From Methanobrevibacter sp. (GTDB taxonomy: Archaea > Methanobacteriota > Methanobacteria > Methanobacteriales > Methanobacteriaceae): 32,000 bases of DNA. Made by a program: the position numbers and the translations under genes. The stretch lies in NCBI RefSeq assembly GCF_050872065.1, contig NZ_JBNMGD010000012.1, positions 1 to 32,000 on the forward strand. The letters are read 5' to 3'. Every line of letters begins with the position of its first letter. Positions within the stretch are counted from its first letter, which is position 1. Below are positions 1,443 to 16,641 of the stretch, piece by piece. A model generated the notes under the pieces. The model saw nothing but the letters and a program-made list of their open reading frames with translations, ran no database searches and had not been told where the DNA came from.

Positions 1443-1718
1443 ATGTATACTATAGCTATTTTTGATGTTAAATTCAAAACTAACAAAGAGAAAATTGAAA
1501 ACATTTTAAGACACTTTGGACTTAGAAAAATTCAGACAAATACATATATTGGAAAATTAAGTAATGCTAATTTAACTAGTTTTAAAAAAGAAATTAAATT
1601 GGCAATTCCTAAAAAAGATAGCCTATTAATTCTACCAATTTGTGATAACTGCTATTCAAAAAAAGATACATTTGGACGAAGAATAAATTTCAGTGAAAAT
1701 TTGTATAGGGTGTTTTAG
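1443..1718 (+). CDS. cas2: CRISPR-associated endoribonuclease Cas2
   Basis: The track ORF starts at TTG 1422. ATG 1443 gives MYTIAIFDV..., the canonical Cas2 first beta-strand with the conserved Asp. GLRKIQTNTYIGKL and DSLLILPI fit the Cas2 ferredoxin fold. About 91 aa. The TAG stop at 1716-1718 abuts the cas1 ATG at 1720. Confidence 0.8.
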   Translation: MYTIAIFDVKFKTNKEKIENILRHFGLRKIQTNTYIGKLSNANLTSFKKEIKLAIPKKDSLLILPICDNCYSKKDTFGRRINFSENLYRVF

Positions 1719-1719
1719 A

Positions 1720-2715: not shown

Positions 2716-2900
2716 AGACAACATTAATATTTTTAAGTTATGAATGTTTGTCCTAAAAAACAGATAAAAAAAGATAGTACTTAGATAATTTTTTGAGGAC
2801 AACAATGCCCTTTTTTAAGGAAAAAATCATGACCCTGAAAAAAAATTTAAAAAAGAAAAATAAATACCTTAAATAACTAAAAGAAGAAAAAATAATAAGA
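2716..2900 (+). promoter_or_regulatory. Putative CRISPR leader
   Basis: 185-bp non-coding stretch rich in A/T runs, lying between the cas1 stop and the first repeat copy. This is the classical leader position. No promoter was mapped. Confidence 0.5.
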
Positions 2901-2937
2901 GTTTAAAACGAATATTATCTTAAGTAATATTCAGAAC
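2901..2937 (+). repeat. CRISPR-type repeat R1 (perfect)
   Basis: 37 nt. Parses as GTTTAAAAC, 8-bp stem GAATATTA/TAATATTC around a 7-nt loop TCTTAAG, then AGAAC. First copy after the leader. Confidence 0.9.
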
Positions 2938-2979
2938 CAAAGAATGCGAAAGAAATAATATATTGTGGAGGTAGATAAT

Positions 2980-3234
2980 ATGACATACTTTTTAGATATG
3001 GATTTACATGAACCTTTTGGTATACCAGAAGTTGTTGAAACTACTGCAGATACTCGCACACGTCTAAGCAATAAGACAACTAAGGAATTAGTTGATTATT
3101 TGATTGGGGTGGACAAGAGTATTAAAGCAGGTTTTGAGAATGCGATTTATTTCCAGGAATGGAGTGTTGGATCTGATATTCTACGTAAGCGTGGTTATGA
3201 AATTCATGGACCATCTGATATTTATAATTTATAG
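2980..3234 (+). CDS. Hypothetical protein (84 aa) in the compositionally foreign block
   Basis: ATG 2980 is preceded by GGAGGT at a 7-nt spacing (track ORF starts at GTG 2965). G+C is much higher than the surroundings. No family recognised. Confidence 0.6.
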   Translation: MTYFLDMDLHEPFGIPEVVETTADTRTRLSNKTTKELVDYLIGVDKSIKAGFENAIYFQEWSVGSDILRKRGYEIHGPSDIYNL

Positions 3235-3247
3235 GAGGTAGATATAA

Positions 3248-3931
3248 GTGGTTTTATTAGAATTGTTAGGTGTAGCTTTAGGTGCTTCTTTAGTTAATGG
3301 CATGGCTAAGAAATCAAGTATGAAAGCAAATCCGCAATTAGATGTTAAGCAATTTGATGCTGATTGTGCTAGATATAGTGTGATCGGTCAAGACATCATG
3401 GATGTTGCTGCTCGTTGTGGTGTAAAACCGAATAAATACGGTGTGTTGCCAGAAGATGGGTACAAGCATTGCATGGGATATGTCACTCAGTATGTCAATC
3501 ATCCTGACGATGTTGAATTATTCAAACGTGATTGGTTATTGACTGTTGAACAACAACTCAAAGCTAAATCAAATCTGATGATTCGTAAGTATTGGGATGA
3601 TTATCAGCATCAGTATAATGGTTACTTGAACAACAAAGAGTATTGGACTTCTGGACCGGAGATTGTACTGGAGTTTAAGCACTGGCATGGTTTGCCAAAA
3701 GATCAGCATTTGAAACGCTTAAAAGATATTCAAACTAAAACATTTTGGGGTGAATTATGTTTGCAAGATCCAATCTTACGCAAGAATCCACGCATTAATG
3801 ATTCATACATTGAAGTATGGGTAATGAGAGGTGGTAAACATGACAAACAAGGCAATTGGGTAACACATAATGCTTGGGAAATGACATATGAGATTTGCTG
3901 TGGTGTGTGTGGCTATGACGCAATGTTATAG
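3248..3931 (+). CDS. Hypothetical protein (227 aa) in the compositionally foreign block
   Basis: GTG start preceded by AGGAGGT. Hydrophobic N-terminus (LLELLGVALGASLV) and Cys-rich C-terminus (CCGVCGYD). About 42% G+C by hand count of lines 3361-3480 and 3661-3720. No family recognised. Confidence 0.7.
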   Translation: MVLLELLGVALGASLVNGMAKKSSMKANPQLDVKQFDADCARYSVIGQDIMDVAARCGVKPNKYGVLPEDGYKHCMGYVTQYVNHPDDVELFKRDWLLTVEQQLKAKSNLMIRKYWDDYQHQYNGYLNNKEYWTSGPEIVLEFKHWHGLPKDQHLKRLKDIQTKTFWGELCLQDPILRKNPRINDSYIEVWVMRGGKHDKQGNWVTHNAWEMTYEICCGVCGYDAML

Positions 3932-3955
3932 TCACATTTTTAAAAAGGTGATATT

Positions 3956-4209
3956 ATGGTATTAATTTATAAAACAGAAGATAATGAATATTTTACTTTA
4001 GCAGAATTAGCACAAAAATTTCCAAAAGAGTGGGCTTACTGTTTGAGTTTAAAACGAATATTATCTTAAGTAATATTCAGAACAAAACTTTGGGAAACAG
4101 ATCCAATTGCCTATTATGAATGGAAACGTGAGTGTATTGAACTGAATATGTTACCTGATTTTTTTGGTACTCGTGATAATCCTATTCCTATTGATGAATC
4201 TAAATTATA
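3956..4209 (+). pseudogene. Small ORF split by repeat copy R2
   Basis: ATG 3956 (MVLIYKTEDNEYFTLAELAQKFPKEWAYCL) runs into R2 and stops at the TAA inside the repeat. The same reading frame reopens right after R2 (KLWETDPIAYYEWKRECIELNMLPDFFGTRDNPIPIDESKL) and ends at TAA 4207-4209. Confidence 0.45.
4047..4083 (+). repeat. CRISPR-type repeat R2 (perfect)
   Basis: Identical 37-mer, same orientation as R1. Confidence 0.9.
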
Positions 4210-4229
4210 AAACTTTTTTTTTAAATTTT

Positions 4230-4266
4230 GTTCTGAATATTACTTAAGATAATATTCGTTTTAAAC
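4230..4266 (-). repeat. CRISPR-type repeat R3 (perfect, inverted)
   Basis: Exact reverse complement of the 37-mer, 146 bp from R2. Confidence 0.9.
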
Positions 4267-4306
4267 GTAATAAAAATATGTATGTTAAGGATTGGAGTGA
4301 AAACAA

Positions 4307-5419
4307 ATGGTGGAGAAAAAACTCAAAAAGTCAGATGAAAGATTTGGTCTTGAATTTGAAGTTAAGAAAAATACAAAGAATGCAAACCGTATCGGATTCA
4401 GTAATACATTATTTGATGTTGGTGAAAAAGTCTATGTTCTGTCAGAAGAGCAGCACTATGATATTATAAAACAGATAGATCAGGTTGATGAATACAAAGA
4501 AAGAATAGCTGAACTTGAAACTGAAATAGCTAATGGATTAACAGACAATAATCTTGAAAATGAACTTCAGGAAAAAGATCAAATGATTAACACTCTGAAA
4601 GATAGGGTTGATTCACTTGGAAAAGAACTTGAATCAAATAAATCAGAAGTTAAAGTCCATGATAAAGATGAAATGGAAGAGTTAAAAGAACAGCTTAAAA
4701 GTTCACAGTCTCAGGAAGCTTATTGGAAAAATGCTTATGAAAATCTGATTGATACATCTGATGAATTATCTGCCAGAAATGAATCCCTCATTAAAGAAAA
4801 TGAAAAACTAAGAAACGATAACAATAACATTAACGAAACCAACAAATTGTTAAATGACAATATGATGGGATTAAACGATAACTATAAAGAAACAAAAGAC
4901 GAACTCCAGTCCAATTTTGAAGAAAAGGAAAATGAATTAAAAGAAACCATTGAAAAACAACAATCTCATATAGATGAATTAAATGATAAATTACAATCCT
5001 TATCCAGTCTTAAAGAATATATTCCACCAAAAGAACATTATGAAGCACTTGAGGAATTGAAAGATAAAATAAAAGAAGTTGAAACAGAATTAAACAAAGC
5101 CAATGCTGAAATCAATCTTAAACTATCCAATCAGAAATCTGAACTGGAAATAAAACACACTGAAGAAAAAGCACAAATGCTAATAGCTTACAATCAAGAG
5201 CTTAACAATAACAAATTAAAATATAATGAACTAGCAAAAGATTATAATCATTTACTTGGAGATGCTAATTCATTATCAAGAATAAACACTTTCTTTAATG
5301 GGAAACATAAACTAATTGTTAAAGATAAAGAACCTGTGGAACTTGAAGAGATAGAGGTGGAAAAAGAACCAACAGAAACAATAGAATATGTTCCCAAAGA
5401 CAAAGTAACATTAATATGA
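4307..5419 (+). CDS. Coiled-coil protein (370 aa), function unknown
   Basis: GGAGTGA RBS before the ATG. Long E/K/N/L-rich heptad-like stretches (ELETEIANG..., LKEQLKSSQ..., ELNDKLQSL...). The last 82 nt are duplicated at 6949-7030. Confidence 0.75.
   Translation: MVEKKLKKSDERFGLEFEVKKNTKNANRIGFSNTLFDVGEKVYVLSEEQHYDIIKQIDQVDEYKERIAELETEIANGLTDNNLENELQEKDQMINTLKDRVDSLGKELESNKSEVKVHDKDEMEELKEQLKSSQSQEAYWKNAYENLIDTSDELSARNESLIKENEKLRNDNNNINETNKLLNDNMMGLNDNYKETKDELQSNFEEKENELKETIEKQQSHIDELNDKLQSLSSLKEYIPPKEHYEALEELKDKIKEVETELNKANAEINLKLSNQKSELEIKHTEEKAQMLIAYNQELNNNKLKYNELAKDYNHLLGDANSLSRINTFFNGKHKLIVKDKEPVELEEIEVEKEPTETIEYVPKDKVTLI
5336..5417 (+). repeat. 82-bp direct repeat, left copy (3' end of the coiled-coil gene)
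   Basis: GTGGAACTTGAAGAGATAGAGGTGG...AACATTAATAT matches 6949-7030 at 80 of 82 positions. Confidence 0.9.
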
Positions 5420-5452
5420 ATATTTATTTATTAATATATGAAAGGTGAAACT

Positions 5453-6925
5453 ATGGATAAAGCATCAGAAAAAGTACCTAAAGTATTTATATCTTATTCT
5501 TGGACAAATGAAGAACATATAGAACAAGTTATAGAATTTGCTACATATTTGGTTAATAATCATGTTGATGTCATATTGGATGAATGGGATGCTCCTGAAG
5601 GAATAGACTTAAATTATTTCATGGAAGAAAATGTTAGATCAGAAGACACAGATTTTGTTCTCATAATTTCTGATAAAGAATATGCTCGTAAAGCTAACGA
5701 AAGAACGGGTGGTGTTGGTACTGAAACACAAATTATTAGCAAAAGAGTTTATGAAGATGTAAACCAAACAAAGTTTATCCCAATAGTTTGGCAAAATGAT
5801 GATGATGGAAAACCATGTCTACCAGATTATTTAGCATCTAGAAGATATTTTGATTTAACACCGAAGAATAGATATTCAAATTCTGAAAAAGTATTACGAA
5901 GATTACATGGTATTCCAGAAAATCCAAAACCAAAATTGGGTGAATTTCCTAAGAAATTGTTAGAAACTAATAAATATTATCCCTCGTTAAAAGAAATTAT
6001 CGAAACATTTGATGAAAAAATTGAAAAAAATCCTAAATCAATCAATTCAATTTCAAGACATTTCTTTAAAGATTTTTTACATAATTTTGATGAGTTTAAA
6101 ATAAAATTTCAGACACGAAATGCGTTAGAAATTGCTAATCAATTACACGATAATATTGAAGAGTTTATTCCATTAAGAAATTATTATATTGAATTTATTG
6201 AAAAAATTACTCAAGTTTATGAGTTTGCCCCAGTAGATGGCGATATAATTAAAGAATTATTTGAAAATATTTATTCTAACTATTTTATACCTAAACCTGG
6301 TGAATCTTATATAAGTGAAGATTTTATGAATTTTGACTTTATCGTAAGAGAACTTTTTTTATATACAATTACTATCTCAATTAAAAATGAATATTACCAA
6401 CTTACAAGTAATCTTTTAAACACTCCGTATTTTTTTAATGACCCATATAATTCTAATGATACTAAAACATTTTTAGATTTGGACAAAAGAAGATATGTTC
6501 GTACTGATGAATATTTAACATATTATTGTAAGGAACATAATCTTAATAAATTAACTGGGATGGGACATTTTTTGATTTCAAGAATTCATAAAAATTATGT
6601 AATTGAAGAATTAGTAAACTCAGACATCTTATGTTGTCATATTTCTATAATTAATTTGCAGGATTCCGATGGTTGGTTCCCATTTACATATATTTACAAA
6701 GAAACAAAGTACATGCATTTATATCAAAAATTAATTTCTGAAAGTTATTATAAGAAAGTTAAATGTATCTTTGACATTGAATCTAAAGAAGAATTGGTAA
6801 AGAAGATTAAATATTCTGATGAGTATTTTGGAAAAATGAGATATGGATTTAGAAGTGTTTTCATGAATTATGTTAAACCAATTAGTGAATATATTAATGC
6901 TGATGAAATTGCAAGTAGAAAATAG
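5453..6925 (+). CDS. TIR/SEFIR-like domain protein with a roughly 300-aa uncharacterised C-terminal domain
   Basis: The N-terminus KVFISYSWTNEEH...VDVILDEWD...FVLIISDKEYARKANERTGGVGTETQII...KFIPIVW matches the bacterial TIR-like/SEFIR pattern (FISYSW, DxWD, GGVGxE). ATG 5453 follows an AAAGGTGA RBS; the track start is 5438. Confidence 0.7.
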   Translation: MDKASEKVPKVFISYSWTNEEHIEQVIEFATYLVNNHVDVILDEWDAPEGIDLNYFMEENVRSEDTDFVLIISDKEYARKANERTGGVGTETQIISKRVYEDVNQTKFIPIVWQNDDDGKPCLPDYLASRRYFDLTPKNRYSNSEKVLRRLHGIPENPKPKLGEFPKKLLETNKYYPSLKEIIETFDEKIEKNPKSINSISRHFFKDFLHNFDEFKIKFQTRNALEIANQLHDNIEEFIPLRNYYIEFIEKITQVYEFAPVDGDIIKELFENIYSNYFIPKPGESYISEDFMNFDFIVRELFLYTITISIKNEYYQLTSNLLNTPYFFNDPYNSNDTKTFLDLDKRRYVRTDEYLTYYCKEHNLNKLTGMGHFLISRIHKNYVIEELVNSDILCCHISIINLQDSDGWFPFTYIYKETKYMHLYQKLISESYYKKVKCIFDIESKEELVKKIKYSDEYFGKMRYGFRSVFMNYVKPISEYINADEIASRK

Positions 6926-6948
6926 TTTGTATATACCAATATTTAAAA

Positions 6949-7030
6949 GTGGAACTTGAAGAGATAGATGTGGAAAAAGAACCAACAGAAACAATAGAAT
7001 ATGTTTCCAAAGACAAAGTAACATTAATAT
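6949..7030 (+). repeat. 82-bp direct repeat, right copy
   Basis: 80/82 identical to 5336-5417. It retains the coding frame of the coiled-coil C-terminus (VELEEIDVEKEPTETIEYVSKDKVTLI, then a stop) without an upstream gene body. Confidence 0.9.
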
Positions 7031-7033
7031 AAA

Positions 7034-7564
7034 CTATTCAATTGATTTGAGTATCTCATCCATCAATTCAGAAGTGTTAATGTTATTTTCCTCACCTATT
7101 TCATATTCAATAACAGATCCAACCAGCTTGTCAAGGGATCTATCTTGAATAGCTGAAATGATTCTTAACTTCATGTGAGTTTCAAGATCTACTTTAACAT
7201 TAATTCTTTTTCTGGGATTGCCTTTATTTAATAGCTTATCGTTAATATCATATGTAGAATTGTCTATATCTTTTCTTTTGAACCAGTCATCTTCATTAAC
7301 ATCTTTAAAAGCATCTTCAACATATTTGGCTATATCAATATCTGCAACTTTATCTTCAATAATGGATGTTGCAACTTTTTCTAAACTGGAATCTTTTGAA
7401 GCTGCAATAACTTTTAACTTCTTGTGAGTGTTTGGGAATAGCTTAACAGTTATTTGTTTTCTTTGTGTTTCAATATCGTTAATGTAGTCTTCTTTAACTT
7501 CTTTTATGGCGTTTTCTCTTTGAACTTGTTTTTCAATAAGCTCTTCAATTTTATTGTCTGTCAT
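7034..7564 (-). CDS. Tandem ribbon-helix-helix (CopG/Arc-like) DNA-binding protein
   Basis: Two internal RHH-like units: KQITVKLFPNTHKKLKVIAASKDSSLEKVATSIIEDKV and KRINVKVDLETHMKLRIISAIQDRSLDKLVGSVIEYEI. AGGAGGA RBS upstream. Confidence 0.7.
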   Translation of the reverse strand: MTDNKIEELIEKQVQRENAIKEVKEDYINDIETQRKQITVKLFPNTHKKLKVIAASKDSSLEKVATSIIEDKVADIDIAKYVEDAFKDVNEDDWFKRKDIDNSTYDINDKLLNKGNPRKRINVKVDLETHMKLRIISAIQDRSLDKLVGSVIEYEIGEENNINTSELMDEILKSIE

Positions 7565-7584
7565 GTTATTTTCCTCCTGTATGT

Positions 7585-7619
7585 TTAATAATGTAATTAC
7601 ATTAATAATGTATTTACAT
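7585..7619. promoter_or_regulatory. Tandem palindromic operator-like sites upstream of the RHH gene
   Basis: TTAATAATGTAATTACAT is followed directly by TAATAATGTATTTACAT. The cores are the perfect 12-bp palindrome ATGTAATTACAT (7591-7602) and the near-palindrome ATGTATTTACAT (7608-7619). The sites lie 20-55 bp upstream of the RHH start codon. Confidence 0.5.
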
Positions 7620-7678
7620 AATATATTTTTGTTGATATATAAATATTATGTTATTTTGAAAAATAAGCTGCCCATCTC

Positions 7679-7725
7679 TGATGGACAGGTTGCGACGAGT
7701 GAAACGAGTCGCAATAGGTATATAC
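7679..7725. other. Two adjacent GC-rich hairpins in an AT-rich intergenic region
   Basis: CTGCCCATC-tct-GATGGACAG forms a 9-bp stem with one mismatch. TTGCGAC-gagtgaaacga-GTCGCAA forms a 7-bp stem. Function unknown. Confidence 0.3.
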
Positions 7726-7755
7726 TAAAAAGTTAGTTAATGGTTGGGTTAAAGT

Positions 7756-7773
7756 GACATTAACATTAACGAT
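7756..7773 (+). repeat. Solo left end of the MITE-like element
   Basis: GACATTAACATTAACGAT is identical to the left terminus of copy B (11983-12000). No matching right end follows. Confidence 0.5.
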
Positions 7774-7959
7774 TGATATTTCCTTACTGGAATTATATTT
7801 TCTTACTAGACAGACATCATACTGGCAAATATGATATATTTTTTTTAAAAGTAACTTTATCAGGTTCTTTGAATGATTTTTTACAACTGGTTTTATTAGG
7901 GATTCAAGAGTTTAATTTGTTGATGATTGTTATTAAGTTATTAATTTAATGGAATGGCT

Positions 7960-8072
7960 TTAACATTAACGGCAAGGGTTCTGGAATTGGATTTGGTTTT
8001 CACACTTGGATATATATGCACGAGTTTCAGGAATTAAGTTTTGAAATGGTAATGTTGGATGTTAATGTTAAT
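7960..8072 (+). repeat. MITE-like element, copy A (about 113 bp)
   Basis: Perfect 11-bp terminal inverted repeats: TTAACATTAAC (7960-7970) and GTTAATGTTAA (8061-8071). About 85% identical to copy B by eye. Non-coding. Confidence 0.7.
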
Positions 8073-8128
8073 AGTTTATATCATAACATTTACAAAACTA
8101 GATTTAACAAAATAATGTTTGGATACAT

Positions 8129-9577
8129 ATGTCAAATTATCATTTTTTTAATAGAAAAGAGCTAGAACAAATTCTTGATGAATGCCTTAATAAAACATTA
8201 GGTGAAGTAGATAAGAACAATGTTTTTGAAATAACAAAGACACATCCTAAATATACTGGAATAGCTGGACATGTAATTGAACAATCTGTATTGGGATATC
8301 CTGCAGATACTAGACAAGAACCTGACTTGGATGTTGATGGTGTTAAAACAGAATTAAAAACAACTGGTATTAAATACATAAGAAATAACACTCAATTTGT
8401 TGCTAAAGAACCTATGAGTATTACGGCCGTGTCTCCTCACACTATCGTTAATGAAACATTTGATGATTCTAATTTTTGGCATAAACTAGCTCACTTATTA
8501 TTTGTTTATTATTTATATGACTCACCAACCACTGTTAAAGCTGCAGGATATGCAGACTTTCCAATTAAAGGTTATCAATTTTATGAATTCAATTCAGAGG
8601 ATACAGAAATATTAAAAAATGACTGGACAATAGTTAGAAACTTTATTTCCTGCTTACAGGATAACTATGAGAATTATGAGGATGAATATCCAAGAATATC
8701 TCATGAATTAAGACCTAAGTTGATGTATATTGATACTGCTCCTAAATGGCCACATAATCCAAGATTCAGATTAAAAAGAAGTGTGGTGTCATCTATCATT
8801 CAAGATCACTTTGGTGAATCTTTAGAGCAATTACCTAAAACATATACTTCCTATTCTGAGATTTATGAAACCTGTCATGAGTTGACAGATCAATATAAAA
8901 ATAAACCAATCCATGAACTTGTTGATTTATTGGATATTAAGGTTAATAGAATTAATAAAGCAATTGGAGAACAGATTATTGTTAAAATGTTTGGTGGAAC
9001 ATCAAGGAAAATGCAAAAGATAAAACTATTCAATAGATTAGGAATTATTGGTAAAACATTAACATTAACAGAGAGAGGACTTCGAAAGGAAGATATGAAA
9101 CTGTTTACAATTGATTTTGATGAATTTACTGAAGATATTGAATTTGAAGATTCACAAACCTATGATTACTTTAACAACAATAGATTTTTATCTATAATAT
9201 TCCAAAGGCCTGAAGCTGATGCTGAAATGAAAGATAATATCTTTTTAGGATTTAAAATGCTTACTTTTGAAAGTAGCTTTATTGAAAATGATGTTAAGAA
9301 TACTTGGGAGAGAATTAAGGATTTAATAGTTAATGATAATCTGGAGGATGTTGTTGTCTTAGATAGCCAAGGACAACCTCGTAAAAATAGAAGCGGTAAT
9401 ATAATGAGTGCTCCTAACTTTCCTAAGAGTTCTGAAGGAAATGTATTCGTTAGAGGAACAAGTTCCACATCTGATGAGAAACCATTGACATTGAATGGAA
9501 TAAAAATGTATAGACAACAAATGTGGGTTAAAGGATTGTATATAGTTAATAAGCTCAATGAAGAGGATTATATTTAA
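8129..9577 (+). CDS. Type II restriction endonuclease, Sau3AI/MutH-like (predicted GATC specificity)
   Basis: 482 aa. The N-terminal MutH-like catalytic region is KYTGIAGHVIEQSVLG...EPDLDVDGVKTELKT (D...ELK). Size and the two-domain layout resemble Sau3AI. The gene is paired with a C5-methyltransferase. Confidence 0.7.
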   Translation: MSNYHFFNRKELEQILDECLNKTLGEVDKNNVFEITKTHPKYTGIAGHVIEQSVLGYPADTRQEPDLDVDGVKTELKTTGIKYIRNNTQFVAKEPMSITAVSPHTIVNETFDDSNFWHKLAHLLFVYYLYDSPTTVKAAGYADFPIKGYQFYEFNSEDTEILKNDWTIVRNFISCLQDNYENYEDEYPRISHELRPKLMYIDTAPKWPHNPRFRLKRSVVSSIIQDHFGESLEQLPKTYTSYSEIYETCHELTDQYKNKPIHELVDLLDIKVNRINKAIGEQIIVKMFGGTSRKMQKIKLFNRLGIIGKTLTLTERGLRKEDMKLFTIDFDEFTEDIEFEDSQTYDYFNNNRFLSIIFQRPEADAEMKDNIFLGFKMLTFESSFIENDVKNTWERIKDLIVNDNLEDVVVLDSQGQPRKNRSGNIMSAPNFPKSSEGNVFVRGTSSTSDEKPLTLNGIKMYRQQMWVKGLYIVNKLNEEDYI

Positions 9578-10833
9578 TCTTCTTTTTCAATTACTCCTTC
9601 TAAATATTTTCCTAGCTTTTGAACAATACCTACTACTAAAGCATTACCCATCATAAAATATCTTCTTCTTTCTGTCATAGCTTTAGATTCTATATTAGTC
9701 CAATTATCCGGAAACATTTGTATTCTTTCAGCTTCAACTGGTGTTAATGTTCTATATATGTCTTTTTCTTCATTAACTCCTATGATATGTGAACTTCTGT
9801 TTGTTGTGCTTTCACTTGTGAGCATTGTTCTTGCAGGTGCATCTAAATGATCTGGAAATGCAATAGCTCCTTCTGAATAGCAATAGGTTTCACCATTTGG
9901 TTTTTTCCTTTCAAGTTTTTTAGAACCTTTCAAGTATTTCCATTTCTCAAGTTTTTCACCAGATATAATGTATTTATCATCAAAATTAGTTTCAAGGATG
10001 TCTCCTAATGTTGTAAACTCTCCAGAATAATTTGGTTCAACTTTATATGTATAAACATTACCATTAATCATACATCCTGCATTATAGAAATGAAAATCAA
10101 ACTCATCACTAACGGAAACAATATCTTCATAGTCTTCTTTAGAAATACTTGATTTGCCTTTTTCTAATTGAGTATCTTTAATTGGGAAATTTGTAGCGAA
10201 TATTCCGTTAGTATACACAAGTTGTTCTGCTGAATATTTTATCATGTCTTTAAAGTAATTGGTAGATTTATGATAAGCATAAATGAATACTCTTCTTCTT
10301 TTTTGAGGAAATCCATATTCTGCTGCATTAATTACTCTCCATTCAACTGCATATCCATTATCAAGAAATGACCTTAACATTATTCCAAAGTCACGTCCTC
10401 TTTGAGTTGATGGTGAACGTAATAATCTATCTACATTTTCAAGTAAAACAAATGGAGGTTGTTTGGTTTCAAGGACTTCGGCTATTTCCCACCAGAGAAC
10501 TCCTTTCTTACCTTCAATACCTTTTTCATTGGATAAAGACCTTGCCACTGAATAATCCTGACATGGAAAACCTCCTACAAGTAATGTGTGATTTGGAATG
10601 GTAGTTTTGTCAACTTTGCCAATATCTTCACATACATGATTTTCAGATGCTCCGAATCTTTCAGTATAGCAATCAAATGCTGCCTGTGTTTTAGTGGATG
10701 GTTCCCATTGGTTAGCCCAGATAAAATCCCAATTATCTTTTTCAGTAACTTCATTGCCGTTATATGTTACTTCATTGAATCCACAGCGGAATCCACCAAC
10801 TCCAGCAAATAATTCTACAACTGTCTTATCCAT
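9574..10833 (-). CDS. DNA (cytosine-5)-methyltransferase
   Basis: Motif I ELFAGVGGF, motif IV GGFPCQDYS, motif VI LLENV, motif VIII QKRRRVFI and motif X GNALVV are present. The likely start is MDKTVVELF at 10833 after a GGAGA RBS; the track extends to 10893. The 3' ends overlap the endonuclease gene by 4 nt. Confidence 0.9.
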   Translation of the reverse strand: MDKTVVELFAGVGGFRCGFNEVTYNGNEVTEKDNWDFIWANQWEPSTKTQAAFDCYTERFGASENHVCEDIGKVDKTTIPNHTLLVGGFPCQDYSVARSLSNEKGIEGKKGVLWWEIAEVLETKQPPFVLLENVDRLLRSPSTQRGRDFGIMLRSFLDNGYAVEWRVINAAEYGFPQKRRRVFIYAYHKSTNYFKDMIKYSAEQLVYTNGIFATNFPIKDTQLEKGKSSISKEDYEDIVSVSDEFDFHFYNAGCMINGNVYTYKVEPNYSGEFTTLGDILETNFDDKYIISGEKLEKWKYLKGSKKLERKKPNGETYCYSEGAIAFPDHLDAPARTMLTSESTTNRSSHIIGVNEEKDIYRTLTPVEAERIQMFPDNWTNIESKAMTERRRYFMMGNALVVGIVQKLGKYLEGVIEKED

Positions 10834-10983
10834 AGTAATTTCTCCAATAGTTAATATATTTATAACAAACATATTAATAATTAACGAGATCAATTAAAAA
10901 GTATTAATTAACTTAAAATTAAACTGATATATAAGAATAATTAAATTAAGAATTCAATTCGTTATAGAACATTATAGGAGCAG

Positions 10984-11229
10984 ATGTTTATGGAAAATTT
11001 AGAAAATGTACATGCTATAATTAATACAATAGCTGAAGACCCAAGAGTGGATGTTTCTAAAATAGATGATTATACATTTAATGTTGTTATTAATGGAGAA
11101 CTAATGGATTCATTTGAAAAACTTGGAGAAATCCAAAAGAAGATAAATGATGGTTGTTCTGATGAATATACTCTTAAAACTATTTATGGTGACGGACAAG
11201 ATGCAAAATTAATTTTAGAAAAGAATTAA
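10984..11229 (+). CDS. Hypothetical small acidic protein (81 aa)
   Basis: AGGAG RBS before the ATG. No family recognised. Confidence 0.55.
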   Translation: MFMENLENVHAIINTIAEDPRVDVSKIDDYTFNVVINGELMDSFEKLGEIQKKINDGCSDEYTLKTIYGDGQDAKLILEKN

Positions 11230-11245
11230 ATTCATAGGTCTTACA

Positions 11246-11527
11246 ATGAGTGCTGACATATTTGAAAAGAATAATATAAGATTACCTACTATTGAAGAAG
11301 TTGAGGAAATAGATAATCCTCCAGTTGTAGCACATTTTACCAATGGACTTTGGGATTGGTATGTAATAGCTGGAGAAAAACTTGATGATGATTATCGTTT
11401 ATTAGGATTAGTTAATGGTGATTATAAAGAGATGGGAACATTTACTTTAAAACAATTAGAAAATGTCTCAGCTAAATTAATATCTATTGAAAACATAAGT
11501 CTTCAAGAAGTAAAGTCCAGAATATAA
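11246..11527 (+). CDS. DUF2958-like protein
   Basis: LPTIEEVEEIDNPPVVAHFTNGLWDWYVIAGEKLDDDYRLLGLVNGDYKEMGTFTLKQLE fits the DUF2958 pattern from memory (LP.lys.E...dp.v..kFf.p...WtWY..E....d..fGlV.G.e.ElGyfsL.EL). That family is common on plasmids and conjugative elements. Confidence 0.55.
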   Translation: MSADIFEKNNIRLPTIEEVEEIDNPPVVAHFTNGLWDWYVIAGEKLDDDYRLLGLVNGDYKEMGTFTLKQLENVSAKLISIENISLQEVKSRI

Positions 11528-11528
11528 T

Positions 11529-11906
11529 TTATTTAACATAATCCGTATATTTCATTAATAATCCAATAACTGTAGGTAATGCAGACTCATAACTTGCAAA
11601 TTCTATGTTTTCTTTTTTACCAATATCTATTTCAATTCCTGTAATCCCTTGAATGGTTTCCGTGTTTATACTTTTAATATCTTTGAACTTGATTACTTTT
11701 CTTGGTTTTTGAATTATTAATCTGTCATCTTCGAGAAATAAAGTTGTAGTTATAACTTCTTGTTCTTCTTTAGCTCCGCCTGCAAGAATTCCTGTTGTTA
11801 AAAATAGTGCAGCACTTGCTAAAGCGGTATTGGATTTTTTAGTAATGACCATTTTAATTTCAGCTTTACCTGCTCTTAAAAGTCTTTCAACTTCTGAATC
11901 AACCAT
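11529..11906 (-). CDS. Hypothetical protein (125 aa)
   Basis: AGGTGA RBS, then ATG 11906 (MVDSEVERLL...). The track start at 11915 is the GTG inside the RBS. One central hydrophobic segment. No family recognised. Confidence 0.55.
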   Translation of the reverse strand: MVDSEVERLLRAGKAEIKMVITKKSNTALASAALFLTTGILAGGAKEEQEVITTTLFLEDDRLIIQKPRKVIKFKDIKSINTETIQGITGIEIDIGKKENIEFASYESALPTVIGLLMKYTDYVK

Positions 11907-11982
11907 GATATTCACCTATTAAAATATTGTTTTTATTATTAATTAAATTGATAGATTTATTTTAAGTTGAATTTAATTCATT

Positions 11983-12097
11983 GACATTAACATTAACGAT
12001 AGGGGTTCTATAATTGGATTTGGATTTCGCACTTGGATATAATGTGCAGGGGTTTCGGGAATTAAGTTTTGAATTGGTGATGGTGGATGTTAATGTC
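11983..12097 (+). repeat. MITE-like element, copy B (about 115 bp)
   Basis: Perfect 11-bp terminal inverted repeats: GACATTAACAT (11983-11993) and ATGTTAATGTC (12087-12097). The internal sequence aligns with copy A. Confidence 0.7.
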
Positions 12098-12486
12098 AGC
12101 AGCCAGAATTTTATTGATGTATATATTTATTTTTTTTATTATGTTTGTTCTATATTTTTTTAAATATTTTTTATAATTTGTAATTTAATTTAATATATAA
12201 ATAGTTCGTATCTTTTCTTTTTTTACGTATATTATAAACAGAAATATACGTTTAATTTATATATAAAATAAGAGAATTTTGAAGTTTTTAGTTAAAAATC
12301 CAAAAAAGAACAAGGACATATACATATGTGTATTACAAGTAGTACATTTATCTAAATTAATAAAAAAGTGTATATGTTGCTTTATTATTCATCATATGTT
12401 ACAATTTTGAAAATATTTTTTGGGTGTTAAATGCTTTACAGAAGTTTCTAATATCTTGAATCAATATCAATAGTTATTAATTTAAA

Positions 12487-12605
12487 ACATTAACATTAAC
12501 ATTAACGGAAGGAGTAATGGTTTTGGATTTGGGTTTTAAACTGGGATATATATGAAAGCATTTCTAAAAAGAGTTTTCAAATAGCTATTGGTGAGTATTA
12601 ATGTA
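12487..12605 (+). repeat. MITE-like element, copy C (diverged)
   Basis: Starts ACATTAACATTAACATTAACGG and ends TATTAATGTA. Internal blocks (TTGGATTTGG, GGGATATATATG, GAGTTTTCAA) are colinear with copies A and B, at roughly 65-70% identity by eye. Confidence 0.5.
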
Positions 12606-12754
12606 TCTGTTATTAATCCGCCCCAGTTTACAAATACTTATTCTAAAATATTAGTTCTTGAGCAATTCATTGTCTTTTAGATATTCAATGAATTTCAAAA
12701 TCATTTTTGTTTCACGTTATCCAATAGCAGTTCTGAAAAGTCAGTTACATAATA

Positions 12755-13297
12755 TCATAAAGAAAAATTATATCGTAATGAACGTCCTGCATGTGCTTTA
12801 GATTCTAATTCATCAATTTTCCTATGAATAATTTTTCTTGCATCATCAACACAACAATTTTCATATAAATAATCATTTTCTTCAGGAGTTACTAATTTAT
12901 AATATTCTGAACTATATCCGTATTTTCGGTATATTTCATTTTCTATTGTTTGTAATATTCTTAATTTAAGTTCTAAGAAATAGGTTGTATTTTTTTTATC
13001 ATTTAAATAAATAAAGATTGGAATTGCATTATCACAAACTTCTGTAATTTTAAATAAATTATTGGTTCTTTCGTATATATTACATAATCTTTTATATGTT
13101 GTTGGACTACCAACTTTTTCAGAAACATTTATTTCATATAAGTTTATAGCTCCTTCTAAATCATTCATTTCTTCTAATAGTTTAGCTTTTTTATTTCTTT
13201 CCAATTGTTTTTTTGTTGGTCTAAAATCTGCAAAAACATTAAGAGTATATCTTTTTCTAGCTTTATCATATCTATCTTTTTTATTTGATGTTTCCAT
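12755..13297 (-). CDS. Hypothetical protein (180 aa), possibly TPR-like helical
   Basis: Complete ORF. On the minus strand its ATG lies 2 nt downstream of repeat R4. The AINLYE...YKRLCNIYE pattern is weakly TPR-like. Confidence 0.6.
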   Translation of the reverse strand: METSNKKDRYDKARKRYTLNVFADFRPTKKQLERNKKAKLLEEMNDLEGAINLYEINVSEKVGSPTTYKRLCNIYERTNNLFKITEVCDNAIPIFIYLNDKKNTTYFLELKLRILQTIENEIYRKYGYSSEYYKLVTPEENDYLYENCCVDDARKIIHRKIDELESKAHAGRSLRYNFSL

Positions 13298-13299
13298 AA

Positions 13300-13336
13300 G
13301 TTCTGAATATTACTTAAGATAATATTCGTTTTAAAC
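13300..13336 (-). repeat. CRISPR-type repeat R4 (perfect, inverted)
   Basis: Exact reverse complement of the 37-mer, same orientation as R3. Confidence 0.9.
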
Positions 13337-13391
13337 GTATGAGTACGAAAAATTATTATTCAAACATATAAATCCAGTTCCTGAAATTGAT

Positions 13392-13718
13392 ATGGACTCA
13401 TTCTTTTTAGATAATCAAAATATTAGAGGAGCACGTACAATCGCAGGAACTATATTGGAGAAAAAACAAATAAAAATACAGGGAAAAATTATTCTAAATT
13501 GGGAAGAATTGCATGCTGTAAAAACATATAGTGGACATTTCCATAAACAAATTAATGGATATGTCCGAAAAAATAGTGATTGGGAGAAATATTTCGAGAA
13601 CCAATTAAATAAAGAATTCACAGGAGATGAGACTATAAAAGAAATTGAAGATTTGATTGAAGACCCTGATTCAGCAATGAAGAAAACACCAAGTTTAACT
13701 CAGAGTATGACCAAATGA
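13392..13718 (+). pseudogene. N-terminal fragment of an ADP-ribosyltransferase (C3/exoenzyme-like) domain gene
   Basis: AVKTYSGHFHKQINGYVRKN matches the Y-[TS]-G-x-x-Y-x-x-IN-x-x-LR region of ART toxins, and IEDPDSAMKKTPSLTQSMT matches the following helix. The ORF stops just where the catalytic Arg strand would begin. Confidence 0.35.
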
Positions 13719-13758
13719 AATAAAGTTAAGGTTTTTATTGCTTCAGTCGTTTCATTGG

Positions 13759-13793
13759 GTTTAAATCAAATTATCTTAAGTAATATCCAGAAC
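13759..13793 (+). repeat. CRISPR-type repeat R5 (degenerate, 35 nt)
   Basis: GTTTAAATCAAATTATCTTAAGTAATATCCAGAAC. The right 24 nt differ from consensus at 1 position. The left part has a 2-nt deletion plus substitutions. Confidence 0.7.
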
Positions 13794-13815
13794 TCACTTG
13801 AAAATTAATTTAACA

Positions 13816-14835
13816 CTATTCATTTAATTTAAACCTTAATATATCATCCCAATGCCTTCTTAATACAATTTCACATTCTAGTTTGTCTAAATCATATGCA
13901 ATAGACCATTGAGTATTACTTGCAATATCTTCAGGGTTTGGGTCTTGTGCTGATGCTTTTAATGCTTTCCATACATCAGTTATTCCATTTCCACCATTAT
14001 TTATTACATCCATTATGGAGTCATACCTTTCTTTTCCTTTTCCATATATTCCATTTACTCTATTTGGTTTTACTTTATCAATATACATTCCATAGAAATT
14101 TGTTGCAGCTTTAAATTTAGTAACAACCATTGGTCTTTCTTCTTTTTCAGGATCAAATTCCACTACTCTACCATCCCCAGTCTTATCTGTTATATAGAAA
14201 TGATAATCCCTCCCACTCGTAGATAAAATATCATATTGTTTGATTAATTTTATCGCTTCTTCTGTTGTTTTAGCTTTATCTAAAATTAATCTAATTAATA
14301 CAGTCGTTAATAAAATAGGTTTCCCAGTTTTTTGAATTGTTGGTTTGCTTGTTTGTGTCAATACAGCTATTCCAAGCCCCTTTTCATTAATCCCATCTAA
14401 ACAGATATATGGTGAAATTAAACATAATGCTTTTGTTCCCCTGCTTATTTCGGGATCATTATTATAAATATGATTTAATGCTGCAAATCCTATTGATTTA
14501 TATCCATTTTTAGGATTACATCTTACAAGTAGTGCTGATGAATCAAAAGAGAAATCATAGTTCCTTCCAAATAAAAATTTTTCATCATTTGGCATTGTAA
14601 ATGCTGAACATCCATAATTAGGAATTTCCAATTCCAATTCTACTCCCGGAAGAGCATCTGCGAAGGTTAATTCCATCATTTGTTGATCACTTATCTCTCC
14701 TTCGACAATTGGAGTTACCTTATCGATATTATAATCATATTTTATTTCTATAGAATAAAGATTATAATCATTATATTCCGTAAGTTTTTTAATGGTTTTA
14801 ATTGATTCCATTCTATCTTCTGATAATTCTAACAT
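13816..14835 (-). CDS. Ntn-hydrolase, peptidase C45 / choloylglycine-hydrolase-like
   Basis: NYGCSAFTM (candidate nucleophile Cys after a roughly 74-aa pro-region) followed by FGRNYDF. DKTGDGRVVEF and the overall length fit linear-amide C-N hydrolases. Confidence 0.6.
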   Translation of the reverse strand: MLELSEDRMESIKTIKKLTEYNDYNLYSIEIKYDYNIDKVTPIVEGEISDQQMMELTFADALPGVELELEIPNYGCSAFTMPNDEKFLFGRNYDFSFDSSALLVRCNPKNGYKSIGFAALNHIYNNDPEISRGTKALCLISPYICLDGINEKGLGIAVLTQTSKPTIQKTGKPILLTTVLIRLILDKAKTTEEAIKLIKQYDILSTSGRDYHFYITDKTGDGRVVEFDPEKEERPMVVTKFKAATNFYGMYIDKVKPNRVNGIYGKGKERYDSIMDVINNGGNGITDVWKALKASAQDPNPEDIASNTQWSIAYDLDKLECEIVLRRHWDDILRFKLNE

Positions 14836-14956
14836 TCTTTCATCCTATTAATATTTTTTCTATATTTATAAAAAAAAGTTCAATGAAATACTGACTAATT
14901 TTAAATATTTCACCATTCCATATTTAAAGTTTATGTAAAATTACCCCTTCACCCTA

Positions 14957-14993
14957 GTTTAAAACGAATATTACCTCAAGTAATATTTAAAAC
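14957..14993 (+). repeat. CRISPR-type repeat R6 (degenerate, 33/37)
   Basis: GTTTAAAACGAATATTACCTCAAGTAATATTTAAAAC. There are four substitutions: two in the loop, one turning a stem G-C pair into G-T, and one in the 3' tail. Confidence 0.75.
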
Positions 14994-15354
14994 TGAAAGA
15001 TTAATGAGAATACAGCAAACCCTAAAAGTTGATAATAGCATATTTATATGGTTGAGTTATTACCTACCCATTCTTCAGAAATCATAAAATTATATAACTC
15101 TTTAATTTTTTCGCTTATGAACTGATTATCCTCCTCAAAAACCTGAATCAAAACAGGGACGCCATACACTTTTCAGTTTGAATAAAATTACCAGTTTCAT
15201 TACTTAAAAAAATATATAGAATATATTATTCTCATTTAAAATTTCAAAAAATAAAGTTTGAGGAACTCTACCCCACGCCTTTAATTAAATAATTTACTTT
15301 TGCGAATTTTAATAATGTTTTTCCATTCTTTTTTTATATTCAATAACCCTTTCA

Positions 15355-16624: not shown

Positions 16625-16641
16625 ACACTAGATTTAATATT

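Follow-up and report, generated by a model that had tools for sequence, protein, structure and literature searches.

The locus described here raises the question of whether the DNA between the repeats of a CRISPR-type array can consist of whole genes and, if so, how it was placed there. A first-pass annotation of the window (the whole 32,000-nt stretch of DNA that was analysed, from a Methanobrevibacter, a gut methanogen) noted six copies of a 37-nt hairpin repeat downstream of cas1 and a 185-nt leader. Our analysis confirms their coordinates and strands (Table 1), the division into four perfect copies and two decayed copies at the trailer end, and the inter-repeat intervals of 1109, 146, 9033, 422 and 1163 bp, none of which is of spacer length. 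The number of exact copies of the 37-mer, GTTTAAAACGAATATTATCTTAAGTAATATTCAGAAC, expected by chance is 0 (100 shuffles). Our best reading of the locus is that it represents a lineage-wide Methanobrevibacter variant of the CRISPR adaptation module, in which the “spacers” are pieces of DNA of 0.15-12.6 kb.

Table 1. Features of the cas2-cas1 locus and its repeat-bounded segments (positions within the window)
Feature	Position	Strand	Description
cas2	1443..1718	+	91 aa; Pfam CRISPR_Cas2 7.8e-15; TIGR01573
cas1	1720..2715	+	331 aa; Pfam Cas_Cas1 2.8e-67; TIGR00287 235 bits
Leader	2716..2900	+	185 nt; seven-lineage alignment
Repeat R1	2901..2937	+	Perfect; 8-9 bp hairpin
Segment A	2938..4046	+	1.1-kb virus-like fragment; two full ORFs and first 30 codons of a third
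Repeat R2	4047..4083	+	Perfect
Segment B	4084..4229		146 bp; only the 3' end of an ORF; bounded by 3' edges of two inverted repeats
Repeat R3	4230..4266	-	Perfect, inverted
Segment C	4267..13299		9033 bp; host-like composition
Coiled-coil ORF (C)	4307-5419
bSEFIR defence protein (C)	5438-6925		PADLOC 4.9e-89
Double-RHH ORF (C)	7034-7564	-
Sau3AI-like REase (C)	8129-9577
C5-MTase (C)	9574-10893	-
Integrase-upstream-like block (C)	12190-12335
ORF (C)	12755-13297	-	Start 2 nt from R4
Repeat R4	13300..13336	-	Perfect, inverted
Segment D	13337..13758		422 bp; 108-aa ORF; bounded by 5' edges of two inverted repeats
Repeat R5	13759..13793	+	Decayed, 35 nt: 2-nt deletion and 3 substitutions; 5' stem arm broken
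Segment E	13794..14956		Ntn/C45-type hydrolase gene 13816-14835(-)
Repeat R6	14957..14993	+	Trailer copy; 4 substitutions

The true start of cas1 is the ATG at 1720 (a GTG at 1693 was rejected), and the best PDB match of its product is 4n06, with which the EGKAS, GFLH and DLIEDFR motifs align, showing that the catalytic motifs are intact. The second-best solved structure is 6opm, which we take to be the casposase of Methanosarcina mazei, and no NCBIfam subtype model matches this Cas1 at its cut-off. Values of dN/dS for cas1 are 0.05-0.1 in closer pairs and at most 0.24 in distant pairs, which are near synonymous saturation, and the value for cas2 against its relatives is ~0.15; strong purifying selection acts on both proteins. 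There are no further cas genes in the 32-kb window. The leader contains two units of the form GA(A/G)GACAAC…N~22…GTCCTAAAA (at ~2716-2760 and ~2795-2841) and a TTAAATAA box at 2869-2876, ~29 nt upstream of R1, which is a putative promoter element judging from archaeal TATA spacing. Between species, homology of the leader region stops at the 3' end of R1.

The ORFs of segment A, initially described as being of foreign composition, have a GC content of 35% against 28%, and positions 2957-4044 are 94.6% identical to positions 7902-8991 (1090 nt) of a virus-like contig (L026). A comparison of sequences ruled out segment B as the continuation of the third viral ORF. The Sau3AI-like restriction-modification (R-M) pair of segment C was borne out by domain and defence-system profiles; the Ntn-hydrolase of segment E was also confirmed, and the supposed TIR-like protein is a defence protein, but of the bSEFIR type. 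Segment C also carries small ORFs and a ~130-nt element in three copies. What had been called a toxin fragment, the ORF of segment D, gives only a weak ADP-ribosyltransferase-like match (E 0.004). Accretion of defence genes, as originally envisaged, suits the bSEFIR and R-M genes of this window but is too narrow for the related loci, whose cargo comprises adhesin-like proteins, a TMEM175-like channel, a flippase-like protein, IS remnants and gene fragments.

A stand-alone cas2-cas1 pair with leader and repeat is found in the window and in at least seven related Methanobrevibacter lineages, with 1-6 repeats at intervals of 0.15-12.6 kb that contain viral and cellular DNA with whole genes. The related loci (L010 and L012-L025, Cas1 64-97% identical) derive mostly from metagenome assemblies and include the isolate M. 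thaueri (GCA_003111625). All those fetched possess a homologous leader of ~190 nt (145 nt in L021), a 37-nt repeat and then genes, the repeats being 433, 488, 1072, 1691, 2714, 3365, 3456, 5527, ~6934 or ~12591 bp apart. None of these loci contains short spacers, let alone a normal short-spacer array, or an effector gene within 10 kb of cas2-cas1. The locus is thus not a one-off decayed array, since the same arrangement is seen in every related locus fetched, and the earlier suggestion of decay accompanied by insertions leaves unexplained why the architecture is lineage-wide and its cas genes are under selection, although shuffling of units by recombination between repeats is indicated.

It is highly unlikely that the repeat is an ordinary dispersed element (MITE or REP) or an assembly artefact, although the R2/R3 and R4/R5 pairs resemble terminal inverted repeats around short DNA, and Logan contigs stop at the repeat. 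An identical Cas1 protein is encoded on eight of these contigs, which were built at k=31, and the six that reach more than ~110 nt beyond cas1 (L001-L006) end inside R1, so that the breaks fall at the repeat. The architecture nevertheless recurs in independent SPAdes and MEGAHIT (k141) assemblies and in the isolate genome. Rather than being scattered genome-wide, the repeat has just six exact copies in the sole GTDB genome that possesses it, all inside two cas-linked stretches; the inverted pairs are not surrounded by target-site duplications, and the sequences flanking a repeat are not contiguous in donor DNA.

Alignment of strains revealed that the segments differ and that the junctions fall exactly at repeat edges. 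In a same-species strain (97% identity) cas1-leader-R1 and R4-D-R5-E-R6 are common, the DNA between them is unrelated and homology ends exactly at the repeat edges. In a related strain a different 12.6-kb segment takes the place of segment C, between equivalent repeats. A related MAG has R4 and everything to its right, including segment D, and the R5 counterpart in the MAG (L009) is likewise decayed. The array-like polarity proposed at the outset is upheld by the strains, the leader end being variable and the trailer end, with its decayed repeats, conserved. Two loci (L012 and L013) share 99.9% identity across 20 kb, the sole difference being a leader-proximal 433-bp segment and one repeat, which could represent deletion instead of gain. 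Elsewhere a fragment of a metallophosphoesterase-like (MPE) gene plus repeat is common to strains whose downstream DNA differs. Variation is thus not always by unit, as is also seen in L011, where 367 bp are missing beside a repeat edge with no loss of a repeat. The repeat loops of L016 and L018 differ even though the cas regions are 99.6% identical. These observations show that repeats are supplied by other arrays through exchange as well as by duplication of R1. An inverted copy is also present in L024 (18163, minus strand); for this copy, as for R3 and R4, simple insertion at the leader end is insufficient and an extra step is needed.

Donor DNA is known at two junctions. The donor ORF3 (83 aa) is interrupted by R2 at the end of segment A, and this right end coincides with the sole GTTTAAAAC 9-mer of the donor contig, a sequence with which the repeat begins; for this one case, joining guided by homology is hinted at. 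At the second junction the MPE gene is severed at the repeat edge and its donor shows no homology to the repeat, which speaks against homologous or site-specific recombination at that point. Further segment boundaries likewise sever genes. The ends of the inserts share a two-fold symmetric motif (repeat-NNAA…TTNN-repeat), with A at +3 in 22/26 junctions (p=2e-7), A at +4 in 19/26 (p=7e-5) and T at -4 in 11/16 (p=0.005); the motif is not a general trait of AAC contexts.

The viral origin of segment A and the position of its right end inside the donor's GTTTAAAAC would accord with another early proposal, in which the host repeat underwent successive recombination with viruses or mobile elements that bore a solitary repeat or mini-array, and solitary repeat units are known on viruses (PMC10651486). 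We consider this very unlikely, and the proposal is not supported: the repeat is absent from the virus-like donor contigs (L026 and L027), the exact sequence has 0 matches in 2.9 million IMG/VR contigs, and the degenerate core of the repeat family gives chance matches only in that database, all without the 5' part. Most segments are host-like in composition and sever host genes, and a single crossover would import whole elements, not fragments of 0.4-1.1 kb.

We assign a probability of roughly 0.5 to the reading in which long DNA is inserted by Cas1-Cas2 at the repeat nearest the leader, after which the units are reshuffled by inter-repeat recombination. Among the three readings in the first-pass annotation, capture of long DNA linked to Cas1-Cas2 has the most support on account of the repeat-edge junctions, the leader-proximal gain or loss of a unit, the symmetric end motif, the genus-wide conservation of cas2-cas1 and leader, and the lack of short spacers in relatives. 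Cas1-Cas2 would make its usual staggered attack at both borders of the leader-proximal repeat and ligate there the 3' ends of a DNA fragment with essentially no limit on its length. The fragment ends would be chosen or trimmed symmetrically to give an NNAA…TTNN insert, and gap filling would duplicate the repeat. The captured pieces would come from virus-like DNA (segment A), from Methanobrevibacter chromosomes or mobile elements, and occasionally from other arrays. The inverted R3 and R4, together with the short and incomplete segments B and D, may stem from the capture or inversion of an R-C-R block. Identical repeats would recombine to delete, swap or invert units, a process to which the observed junction patterns and strain differences point, and segments bearing useful genes (bSEFIR, R-M, adhesins, transporters) would persist while trailer repeats decay. 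This suggests that gene-sized DNA can be captured by the spacer-insertion machinery. Canonical Cas1-Cas2 complexes measure ~30-40 bp, and we know of no biochemical precedent for full-site integration of kilobase DNA by Cas1-Cas2. A full-text literature search found no report of arrays with gene-sized inserts, which fits novelty and lends no support.

It is possible, though less likely, that the locus is a recombination hot spot harbouring a naive or relict array that derives from an ancestral cas2-cas1, leader and single repeat as found in M. thaueri. Extra repeats and the long segments would then have arisen by illegitimate recombination, rearrangement and exchange between the arrays of different strains, with Cas1-Cas2 uninvolved, or merely nicking the repeat borders, and retained to serve arrays elsewhere in the genome. 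Such use in trans is conceivable because Methanobacteriales are reported to have a type I-B, a type III-A or no CRISPR-Cas system (PMC11375127). Single-repeat loci do occur (L014 and L020), the same 2.9-kb HEPN/MNT-cas2-cas1-R1 module has different flanks in L012 and L014, and the swaps 3' of a fixed repeat, the non-unit indel at a repeat edge and the replacement of the L018 repeat loops in concert are all in keeping with a hot spot. Left unexplained, however, are the exact placement of junctions on either edge of the repeat, including where the donor lacks homology to it, the symmetric insert-end motif, and the clean leader-adjacent segment-plus-repeat unit that alone distinguishes the 99.9%-identical strains. 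Neither the GTDB genome nor JGI metagenomes yielded a canonical array with the 37-mer.

In L020 and L022-L025 a divergently oriented gene of the Phage_integrase family (360 aa) is found immediately 5' of cas2, and a ~140-nt block in segment C is homologous to the region upstream of that gene. Together with the hairpin-forming repeat, these features could indicate an integron-like, site-specific system in which a tyrosine recombinase acts on the repeats and Cas1-Cas2 is a bystander, but this is very unlikely. Neither the window nor the vicinity of cas2 in L012-L019 and L021 contains an integrase, and the MPE donor site and the repeat share no core homology. The likening of the repeat to attC sites, which had accompanied the proposal of long-DNA capture, likewise fails: segments are multi-gene and not single promoterless-ORF cassettes, genes lie in both orientations, boundaries pass through genes to leave truncated ends, and any one genome has identical copies of the repeat, whereas attC sites are diverse. 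Integrons do resemble the locus in their ordered gene-bearing segments, hairpin-forming sites, adjoining integrase-type gene and strain-variable content that includes defence genes, although their enzyme is the tyrosine recombinase IntI whereas Cas1-Cas2 adjoins the segments here.

Canonical CRISPR loci share with this one intact Cas1 and Cas2 motifs, a conserved AT-rich leader abutting the first repeat, a partially palindromic 37-nt repeat ending in …AUUCAGAAC, direct-repeat units gained or lost as repeat plus segment, a variable leader end with a conserved, decayed trailer end, and a segment from a virus-like element. In contrast to canonical intervals of ~30-45 bp, those here are irregular (146 bp to 12.6 kb) with whole genes inside; there are only 1-6 repeats, some inverted, cas2 lies 5' of cas1, cas4 is absent, and no lineage has an effector gene within 10 kb. 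In casposons (Cas1-solo transposons), as proposed here, a Cas1-family integrase mobilises kilobase DNA, making staggered cuts that lead to target duplication. The present locus differs in that Cas2 is present, PolB is absent, cas1 is not part of the segments, a leader-adjacent 37-nt repeat serves as the duplicated target and the inserts lack terminal inverted repeats. Non-canonical (“off-target”) spacer integration generates neo-arrays, in which Cas1-Cas2 similarly acts outside its normal rules and repeat duplications are made, although the insert is still spacer-sized. Prophage integration into a CRISPR repeat is known, and mobile elements that insert in this way also place kilobase DNA between CRISPR repeats; they are discrete, have defined ends and encode a transposase or integrase of their own. 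The present segments lack such genes apart from severed IS remnants, and their ends cut arbitrary genes. Tn7-like elements, which target CRISPR arrays (PMC11837452), belong to the same group of mobile elements. Solitary repeats, mini-arrays and Racr RNAs of viruses and plasmids (PMC10651486) place CRISPR repeats off regular arrays beside non-spacer DNA, but the repeats described here are chromosomal and cas-linked, with none on viral contigs.

The hairpin is retained in 94% of cells, including one A-U/U-A swap, and its G·U pairs are workable only on the leader-sense strand. Its maintenance on this strand makes it likely that the array is transcribed.

The repeats downstream of cas2 and cas1 are arranged as the first-pass annotation had described, with the 37-nt sequence GTTTAAAACGAATATTATCTTAAGTAATATTCAGAAC occurring four times without a mismatch (R1 to R4; 0 occurrences expected by chance), followed by two degenerate leader-distal copies, of which R5 is the more decayed (35 nt) and R6 carries four substitutions. 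The inter-repeat intervals of 1109, 146, 9033, 422 and 1163 bp (segments A to E) were likewise confirmed, none of them being of canonical spacer length. A leader of 185 nt lies directly 5' of R1, and alignment of the leaders of relatives revealed two GAGGACAAC…GTCCTAAAA units as well as, ~29 nt 5' of the repeat, a TTAAATAA box. The position of this box, together with standard archaeal promoter geometry, predicts a transcription start just before R1. Alignment to the A. fulgidus protein (PDB 4n06) indicates that Cas1 retains its catalytic motifs. There are no further cas genes in the 32-kb window, in which the remaining genes are ordinary archaeal ones, and Rfam gave no match at the repeats or anywhere in window positions 1-17500. 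An exact-protein look-up returned no record for Cas1 with a GTG start or for the coiled-coil ORF of segment C; Cas1 with an ATG start was found, although six of the seven Logan contigs encoding exactly this protein (L001-L006) end inside R1 and are thus uninformative on the downstream DNA.

Coordinates of the repeats, inter-repeat segments and accompanying features in the window and in comparison loci
Sequence	Feature	Position	Strand	Remarks
Window	cas2	1443-1718		Pfam and NCBIfam; upstream of all repeat copies
Window	cas1	1720-2715		Pfam and NCBIfam; upstream of all repeat copies
Window	R1	2901-2937	+	
Window	Segment A	2938-4046		
Window	End of homology to L026 (at L026 8988-8996)	4038-4055		
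Window	R2	4047-4083	+	
Window	Segment B	4084-4229		
Window	R3	4230-4266	-	
Window	Segment C	4267-13299		
Window	Coiled-coil ORF	4307-5419		
Window	bSEFIR gene	5438-6925		
Window	85-nt direct repeat	5336-5420; 6949-7033		
Window	~130-nt element	7936-8068; 11963-12095; 12472-12604		
Window	Block shared with M. thaueri group	12190-12335		
Window	R4	13300-13336	-	
Window	Segment D	13337-13758		
Window	R5	13759-13793	+	
Window	Segment E	13794-14956		Ntn/C45-type hydrolase gene
Window	R6	14957-14993	+	
Window	MatE transporter ORFs	15355-16062; 16128-16559		
Window	MarR	16642-17100		
L001	DpnII-type restriction-modification pair	1120-2926		
L012	~180-nt direct repeats	8260-8438; 17477-17656		
L014	Similar to L012 ~180-nt repeats	6039-6209		
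L016	Repeat	11192-11228		Loop TCTATTG
L018	Repeats	2764-2800; 3289-3325		Loop TCACCAG
L018	C/A-rich stretch	3030-3230		
L020	Phage_integrase-family gene	7975-9054		
L020	Counterpart of window block	9111-9209		
L022	Phage_integrase-family gene	5741-6823		
L022	Counterpart of window block	6880-6982		
L024	Phage_integrase-family gene	8348-9430		
L024	Counterpart of window block	9491-9593		
L026	GTTTAAAAC	8988-8996		First 9 nt of repeat

Homologues of this Cas1 number in the hundreds in Methanobrevibacter. We retrieved loci in which Cas1 is 90, 81, 75, 66, 65 and 64% identical to that of the window, plus that of a 97% strain (L010 and L012-L025); the genome of an M. thaueri isolate is among them. 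In all of these cas2 is immediately 5' of cas1, and a homologous leader of ~190 nt (145 nt in L021) leads to a 37-nt repeat of the same family and then to ordinary-looking genes. Further repeat copies are found at 433, 488, 1072, 1691, 2714, 3365, 3456, 5527, ~6934 (inverted) and ~12591 bp, and some loci have no second copy within about 10 kb. The window and the fetched loci, representing at least eight lineages, contain no short spacers, nor does a normal short-spacer array occupy this position in any fetched relative. Effector genes are absent from the window and from the 10 kb on either side in the relatives. Long intervals are thus a trait of this locus family and not peculiar to a single genome. 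Purifying selection acts on both Cas1 and Cas2, with dN/dS of 0.05-0.1 for cas1 in closer pairs (up to 0.24 in distant pairs, which are near synonymous saturation) and of about 0.15 for cas2. Across nine variants, 94% of cells preserve the 8-bp hairpin of the repeat; one position is G·U in five variants and A-U in four, and hence pairs on the leader-sense strand only, and another shows an A-U/U-A swap, the sense strand folding better. These changes support a maintained hairpin but do not prove it, as the shuffle control for covariation was weak (57/500). The main alternative is that the locus is a relict or naive array situated at a recombination hot spot and that Cas1-Cas2 has been retained to serve elsewhere; members of the Methanobacteriales have been reported with I-B, III-A or no CRISPR-Cas systems (PMC11375127). 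We regard this as rather unlikely, and even then a genus-wide module under purifying selection that never accumulates short spacers would need explaining.

Among GTDB species genomes the exact repeat was found in one only, the MAG Methanobrevibacter sp. SARD03_bin.040 (~97% identity to the window where the two share sequence); rather than being scattered, its six exact copies all lie in cas-linked stretches. MITE and REP elements occur as many genome-wide copies unlinked to cas genes and are associated with target-site duplications. In contrast, the copies here are six, cas-linked and devoid of target-site duplications in the window, and the same architecture is seen again in assemblies made independently and in the genome of an isolate, so that a MITE or an assembly artefact is poorly supported as an explanation. 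The 97% strain and the window share cas1, the leader and R1 and also, on a separate contig in the strain, the stretch from R4 through D, R5, E and R6 to the MatE gene. The strain's other inter-repeat DNA is unrelated to segments A, B and C, its counterpart of segment C being 12.6 kb long and containing IS remnants and an adhesin-like ORF of 3458 codons, and homology to the window breaks at the repeat edges, where the first-pass annotation had proposed to look for junctions. Over 20 kb, loci L012 and L013 share 99.9% identity, the sole difference being a 433-bp segment and one repeat, located directly after the leader-proximal repeat. Both comparisons uphold the array-like polarity claimed for the locus, in which the leader end is variable and the trailer end, with its decayed repeats, is conserved. 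L014 encodes the same Cas1 as L012, and homology between them stops at the last base of R1. Variation is not always by whole units: a third strain is missing 367 bp beside a repeat edge with its repeat count unchanged, three strains have a gene fragment and repeat in common followed by different DNA, and L016 and L018, whose cas regions are 99.6% identical, have repeats differing in five of seven loop bases, both L018 copies carrying the variant. Exchange between arrays therefore occurs too.

Over 1090 nt, segment A (GC 35% versus 28%) matches L026 at 94.6% identity. L026 is phage-like, with densely packed genes running in a single direction, and encodes relatives of PcfJ-like, ASCH, HNH and DUF3310 proteins; a contig related to L026 is 148 kb long. 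This source could be located only via a large protein collection, the 227-aa ORF of segment A having no relative in IMG/VR (pattern scan), GenBank phages, Pfam, PHROGs or NCBIfam. R2 truncates the third viral ORF behind its codon 30, and this ORF does not continue in segment B; at the left junction of segment A the donor-like contigs differ. Segment C is of host composition and encodes a bSEFIR defence protein, a Sau3AI-like restriction-modification pair, RHH and coiled-coil proteins and small ORFs. None of the window's segments contains an integrase or transposase gene. Cargo in relatives includes adhesin-like proteins, a TMEM175-like channel, a MurJ/MatE-like flippase, unknown ORFs, IS remnants and gene fragments. 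Solitary repeats carried by viruses are among the nearest precedents in the literature (PMC10651486), and it had been suggested that the repeats arrived on viral or plasmid DNA. This origin is poorly supported, since the exact repeat has no match in IMG/VR, matches there to the degenerate family core lack the 5' part of the repeat, the donor-like contigs of segment A do not carry it, and the Cas1 family of the locus is absent from IMG/VR.

Segment C has features of its own. An 85-nt direct repeat (96% identical) represents the 3' end of the coiled-coil ORF, duplicated right after the bSEFIR gene, and the defence gene therefore looks to have been inserted with target duplication. A G/U-rich non-coding element of ~130 nt, delimited by CATTAACATTAAC…GTTAATG and with a long + strand hairpin (z -1.8 and -3.9), is present in three copies (73-83% identical); it has no Rfam match, is not found in any other fetched locus, and may be a small RNA or a MITE. 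A block of ~100-140 nt, in which the palindrome ACGTATATT-N9-AATATACGT and a box reading TTTATATATAAAA are found, shows 77-79% identity to the DNA separating the start of a tyrosine-integrase gene from cas2 in loci of the M. thaueri group; no integrase gene is present in the window. L018 has, in its 488-bp inter-repeat segment, a C/A-rich low-complexity stretch (…ccaccccaccaactccagaacc…) that differs strongly from AT-rich host DNA.

Junctions often cut genes. For example, an adhesin ORF runs into a repeat and has its stop codon within it, a 3' ORF stub immediately follows R1 in L014, and an IS5-like DUF772 transposase remnant in a segment of the MAG begins 11 nt from the repeat edge, a distance too short for an intact IS terminus, so that the end of this element appears to have been cut. 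A metallophosphoesterase-like gene that is uninterrupted in pig-gut contigs is interrupted at an array boundary (donor …TATCCTGG/AATAGATAATG, array …TATCTTGG/GTTTAAAAC, with the slash at the joint). Gene-cutting boundaries of this sort exclude both cassette-like units and discrete elements possessing ends of their own, and for the metallophosphoesterase junction, at which donor and repeat have no homology, homologous or site-specific recombination is excluded as well. Among 26 different junctions at repeat 3' edges, from eight lineages, A occupies insert position 3 in 22 (p=2e-7) and position 4 in 19 (p=7e-5); at the 5' edges of repeats (non-leader junctions), T is found at -4 in 11 of 16 (p=0.005) and at -3 in 9 of 16. 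Generic AAC, GAAC and AAAAC contexts in the same DNA have 29-39% A at the same positions. The ends of inserts thus tend towards NNAA…TTNN. A rule with such two-fold symmetry is expected from a symmetric end-processing and integration complex, and is not what random breakage, homologous exchange or cargo selection would leave. The base pair after the cut is AA in both known donors, an anecdotal sample (n=2), and no conserved extension of the repeat into the flanks was seen beyond the NNAA/TTNN signal. The GA before R1 and R2 is not taken as part of a 39-nt staggered duplication with two leader bases, since TTGA conforms to the general TTNN pattern of insert ends and TTAA stands at this place in the donor. 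In the 9.6-kb contig L026 the sole GTTTAAAAC lies exactly where homology to segment A stops (chance roughly 5e-4, post hoc); the microhomology-guided joining that this prompted us to consider was not reproduced at the metallophosphoesterase junction.

The most economical reading, to which we give a probability of about 0.5, is that Cas1-Cas2 inserts long DNA at the leader-proximal repeat and that the repeats then recombine with one another. Cas1-Cas2, the catalyst that we infer from the junction patterns observed, would attack both borders of this repeat, a DNA fragment of unmeasured length would be joined in, and repair would duplicate the repeat; recombination between identical repeats would delete, swap or invert units, and those with useful genes would persist. 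The inversion of R3 and R4 may reflect flipping of an R-C-R block with breakpoints at the outer repeat edges, or a 9.7-kb fragment of another array may have been captured in reverse, which would also account for B and D being short gene fragments, each between two like edges. Long-DNA capture by Cas1-Cas2 was one proposal of the first-pass annotation, and the edge junctions, end motif and leader-proximal unit favour it; its integron-like component does not stand. Integrons employ an IntI-type tyrosine recombinase and collect cassettes of one (rarely two) promoterless ORFs in one orientation, with diverse attC hairpins. In contrast, the window encodes no IntI-type recombinase, its repeats are identical, and its segments are multi-gene, bidirectional and truncated. 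A recombinase of this kind acting on the repeats is poorly supported, as a Phage_integrase gene is found beside cas2 in one clade only and not in the window. There is a substantial, if less than even, chance that this Methanobrevibacter Cas1-Cas2 clade has lost, or never had, a molecular ruler, such that gene-sized viral and cellular DNA is inserted at a leader-proximal hairpin repeat. Accessory and defence genes would then make up an array that is inherited and reshuffled, a Cas1-based gene-capture platform.

The locus shares with CRISPR adaptation modules intact Cas1 and Cas2 and a conserved leader directly 5' of the first repeat, and with CRISPR arrays short near-identical hairpin repeats and a polarity with a variable leader end and a decayed terminal repeat. 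CRISPR arrays gain new units at the leader end and have repeats of 23-55 nt, often palindromic, and spacers of similar length (about 21-72 bp). Here, in contrast, two of the six copies are inverted, and intervals of 146-9033 bp (433-12591 bp in relatives) depart from the defining feature of short, regular spacers. Casposons encode Cas1 without Cas2 and a family B polymerase, and have terminal inverted repeats and a target-site duplication around the whole element, whereas this locus has Cas2, no PolB and no inverted repeat copy upstream of cas2. Prophages, Tn7-like elements or IS elements inserted in a CRISPR repeat would carry an integrase or transposase of their own, unlike the window's segments, and would have defined ends or att sites; Tn7-like elements that target CRISPR repeats are again among the nearest literature (PMC11837452). 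Full-text searches of the literature turned up no account of Cas1-Cas2 arrays with kilobase spacers.

The prevailing view of Cas1-Cas2 as an integrase strictly for short spacers would change if a natural, conserved variant builds arrays of kilobase inserts. Such a gene-capture platform would lie functionally between casposon and CRISPR array, as an intermediate between transposition and adaptation, and would provide a living model for the origin of arrays from a casposon-like ancestor. It would also constitute a new route for acquiring genes and defence islands in the dominant methanogens of animal guts and point to an enzyme from nature that inserts long DNA next to a leader. Loci of this type will be overlooked or wrongly called by array finders, and links between viruses and Methanobrevibacter hosts that are drawn from spacers could suffer.

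The M. thaueri clade has a divergent gene for a ~360-aa Phage_integrase-family protein upstream of cas2, 82% conserved between species versus about 72% for neighbouring genes. In the window, the MatE transporter gene that directly follows the trailer repeat is broken into two ORFs and is probably a pseudogene; it adjoins MarR, and an intact MarR-MatE pair lies upstream of cas2-cas1 in L020 and L024. In L001, from the species of the window, a DpnII-type restriction-modification pair is just upstream of a CLC channel gene and cas2-cas1, placing the module in a defence-rich neighbourhood. In L012 the entire island of HEPN/MNT toxin-antitoxin, cas2-cas1 and array lies between direct repeats of ~180 nt that are 76% identical and include a TTTATATA box resembling a promoter; these repeats have no counterpart in the window and a similar sequence is present in L014, where the 2.9-kb HEPN/MNT-cas2-cas1 module of L012 is located between different genes on both sides.
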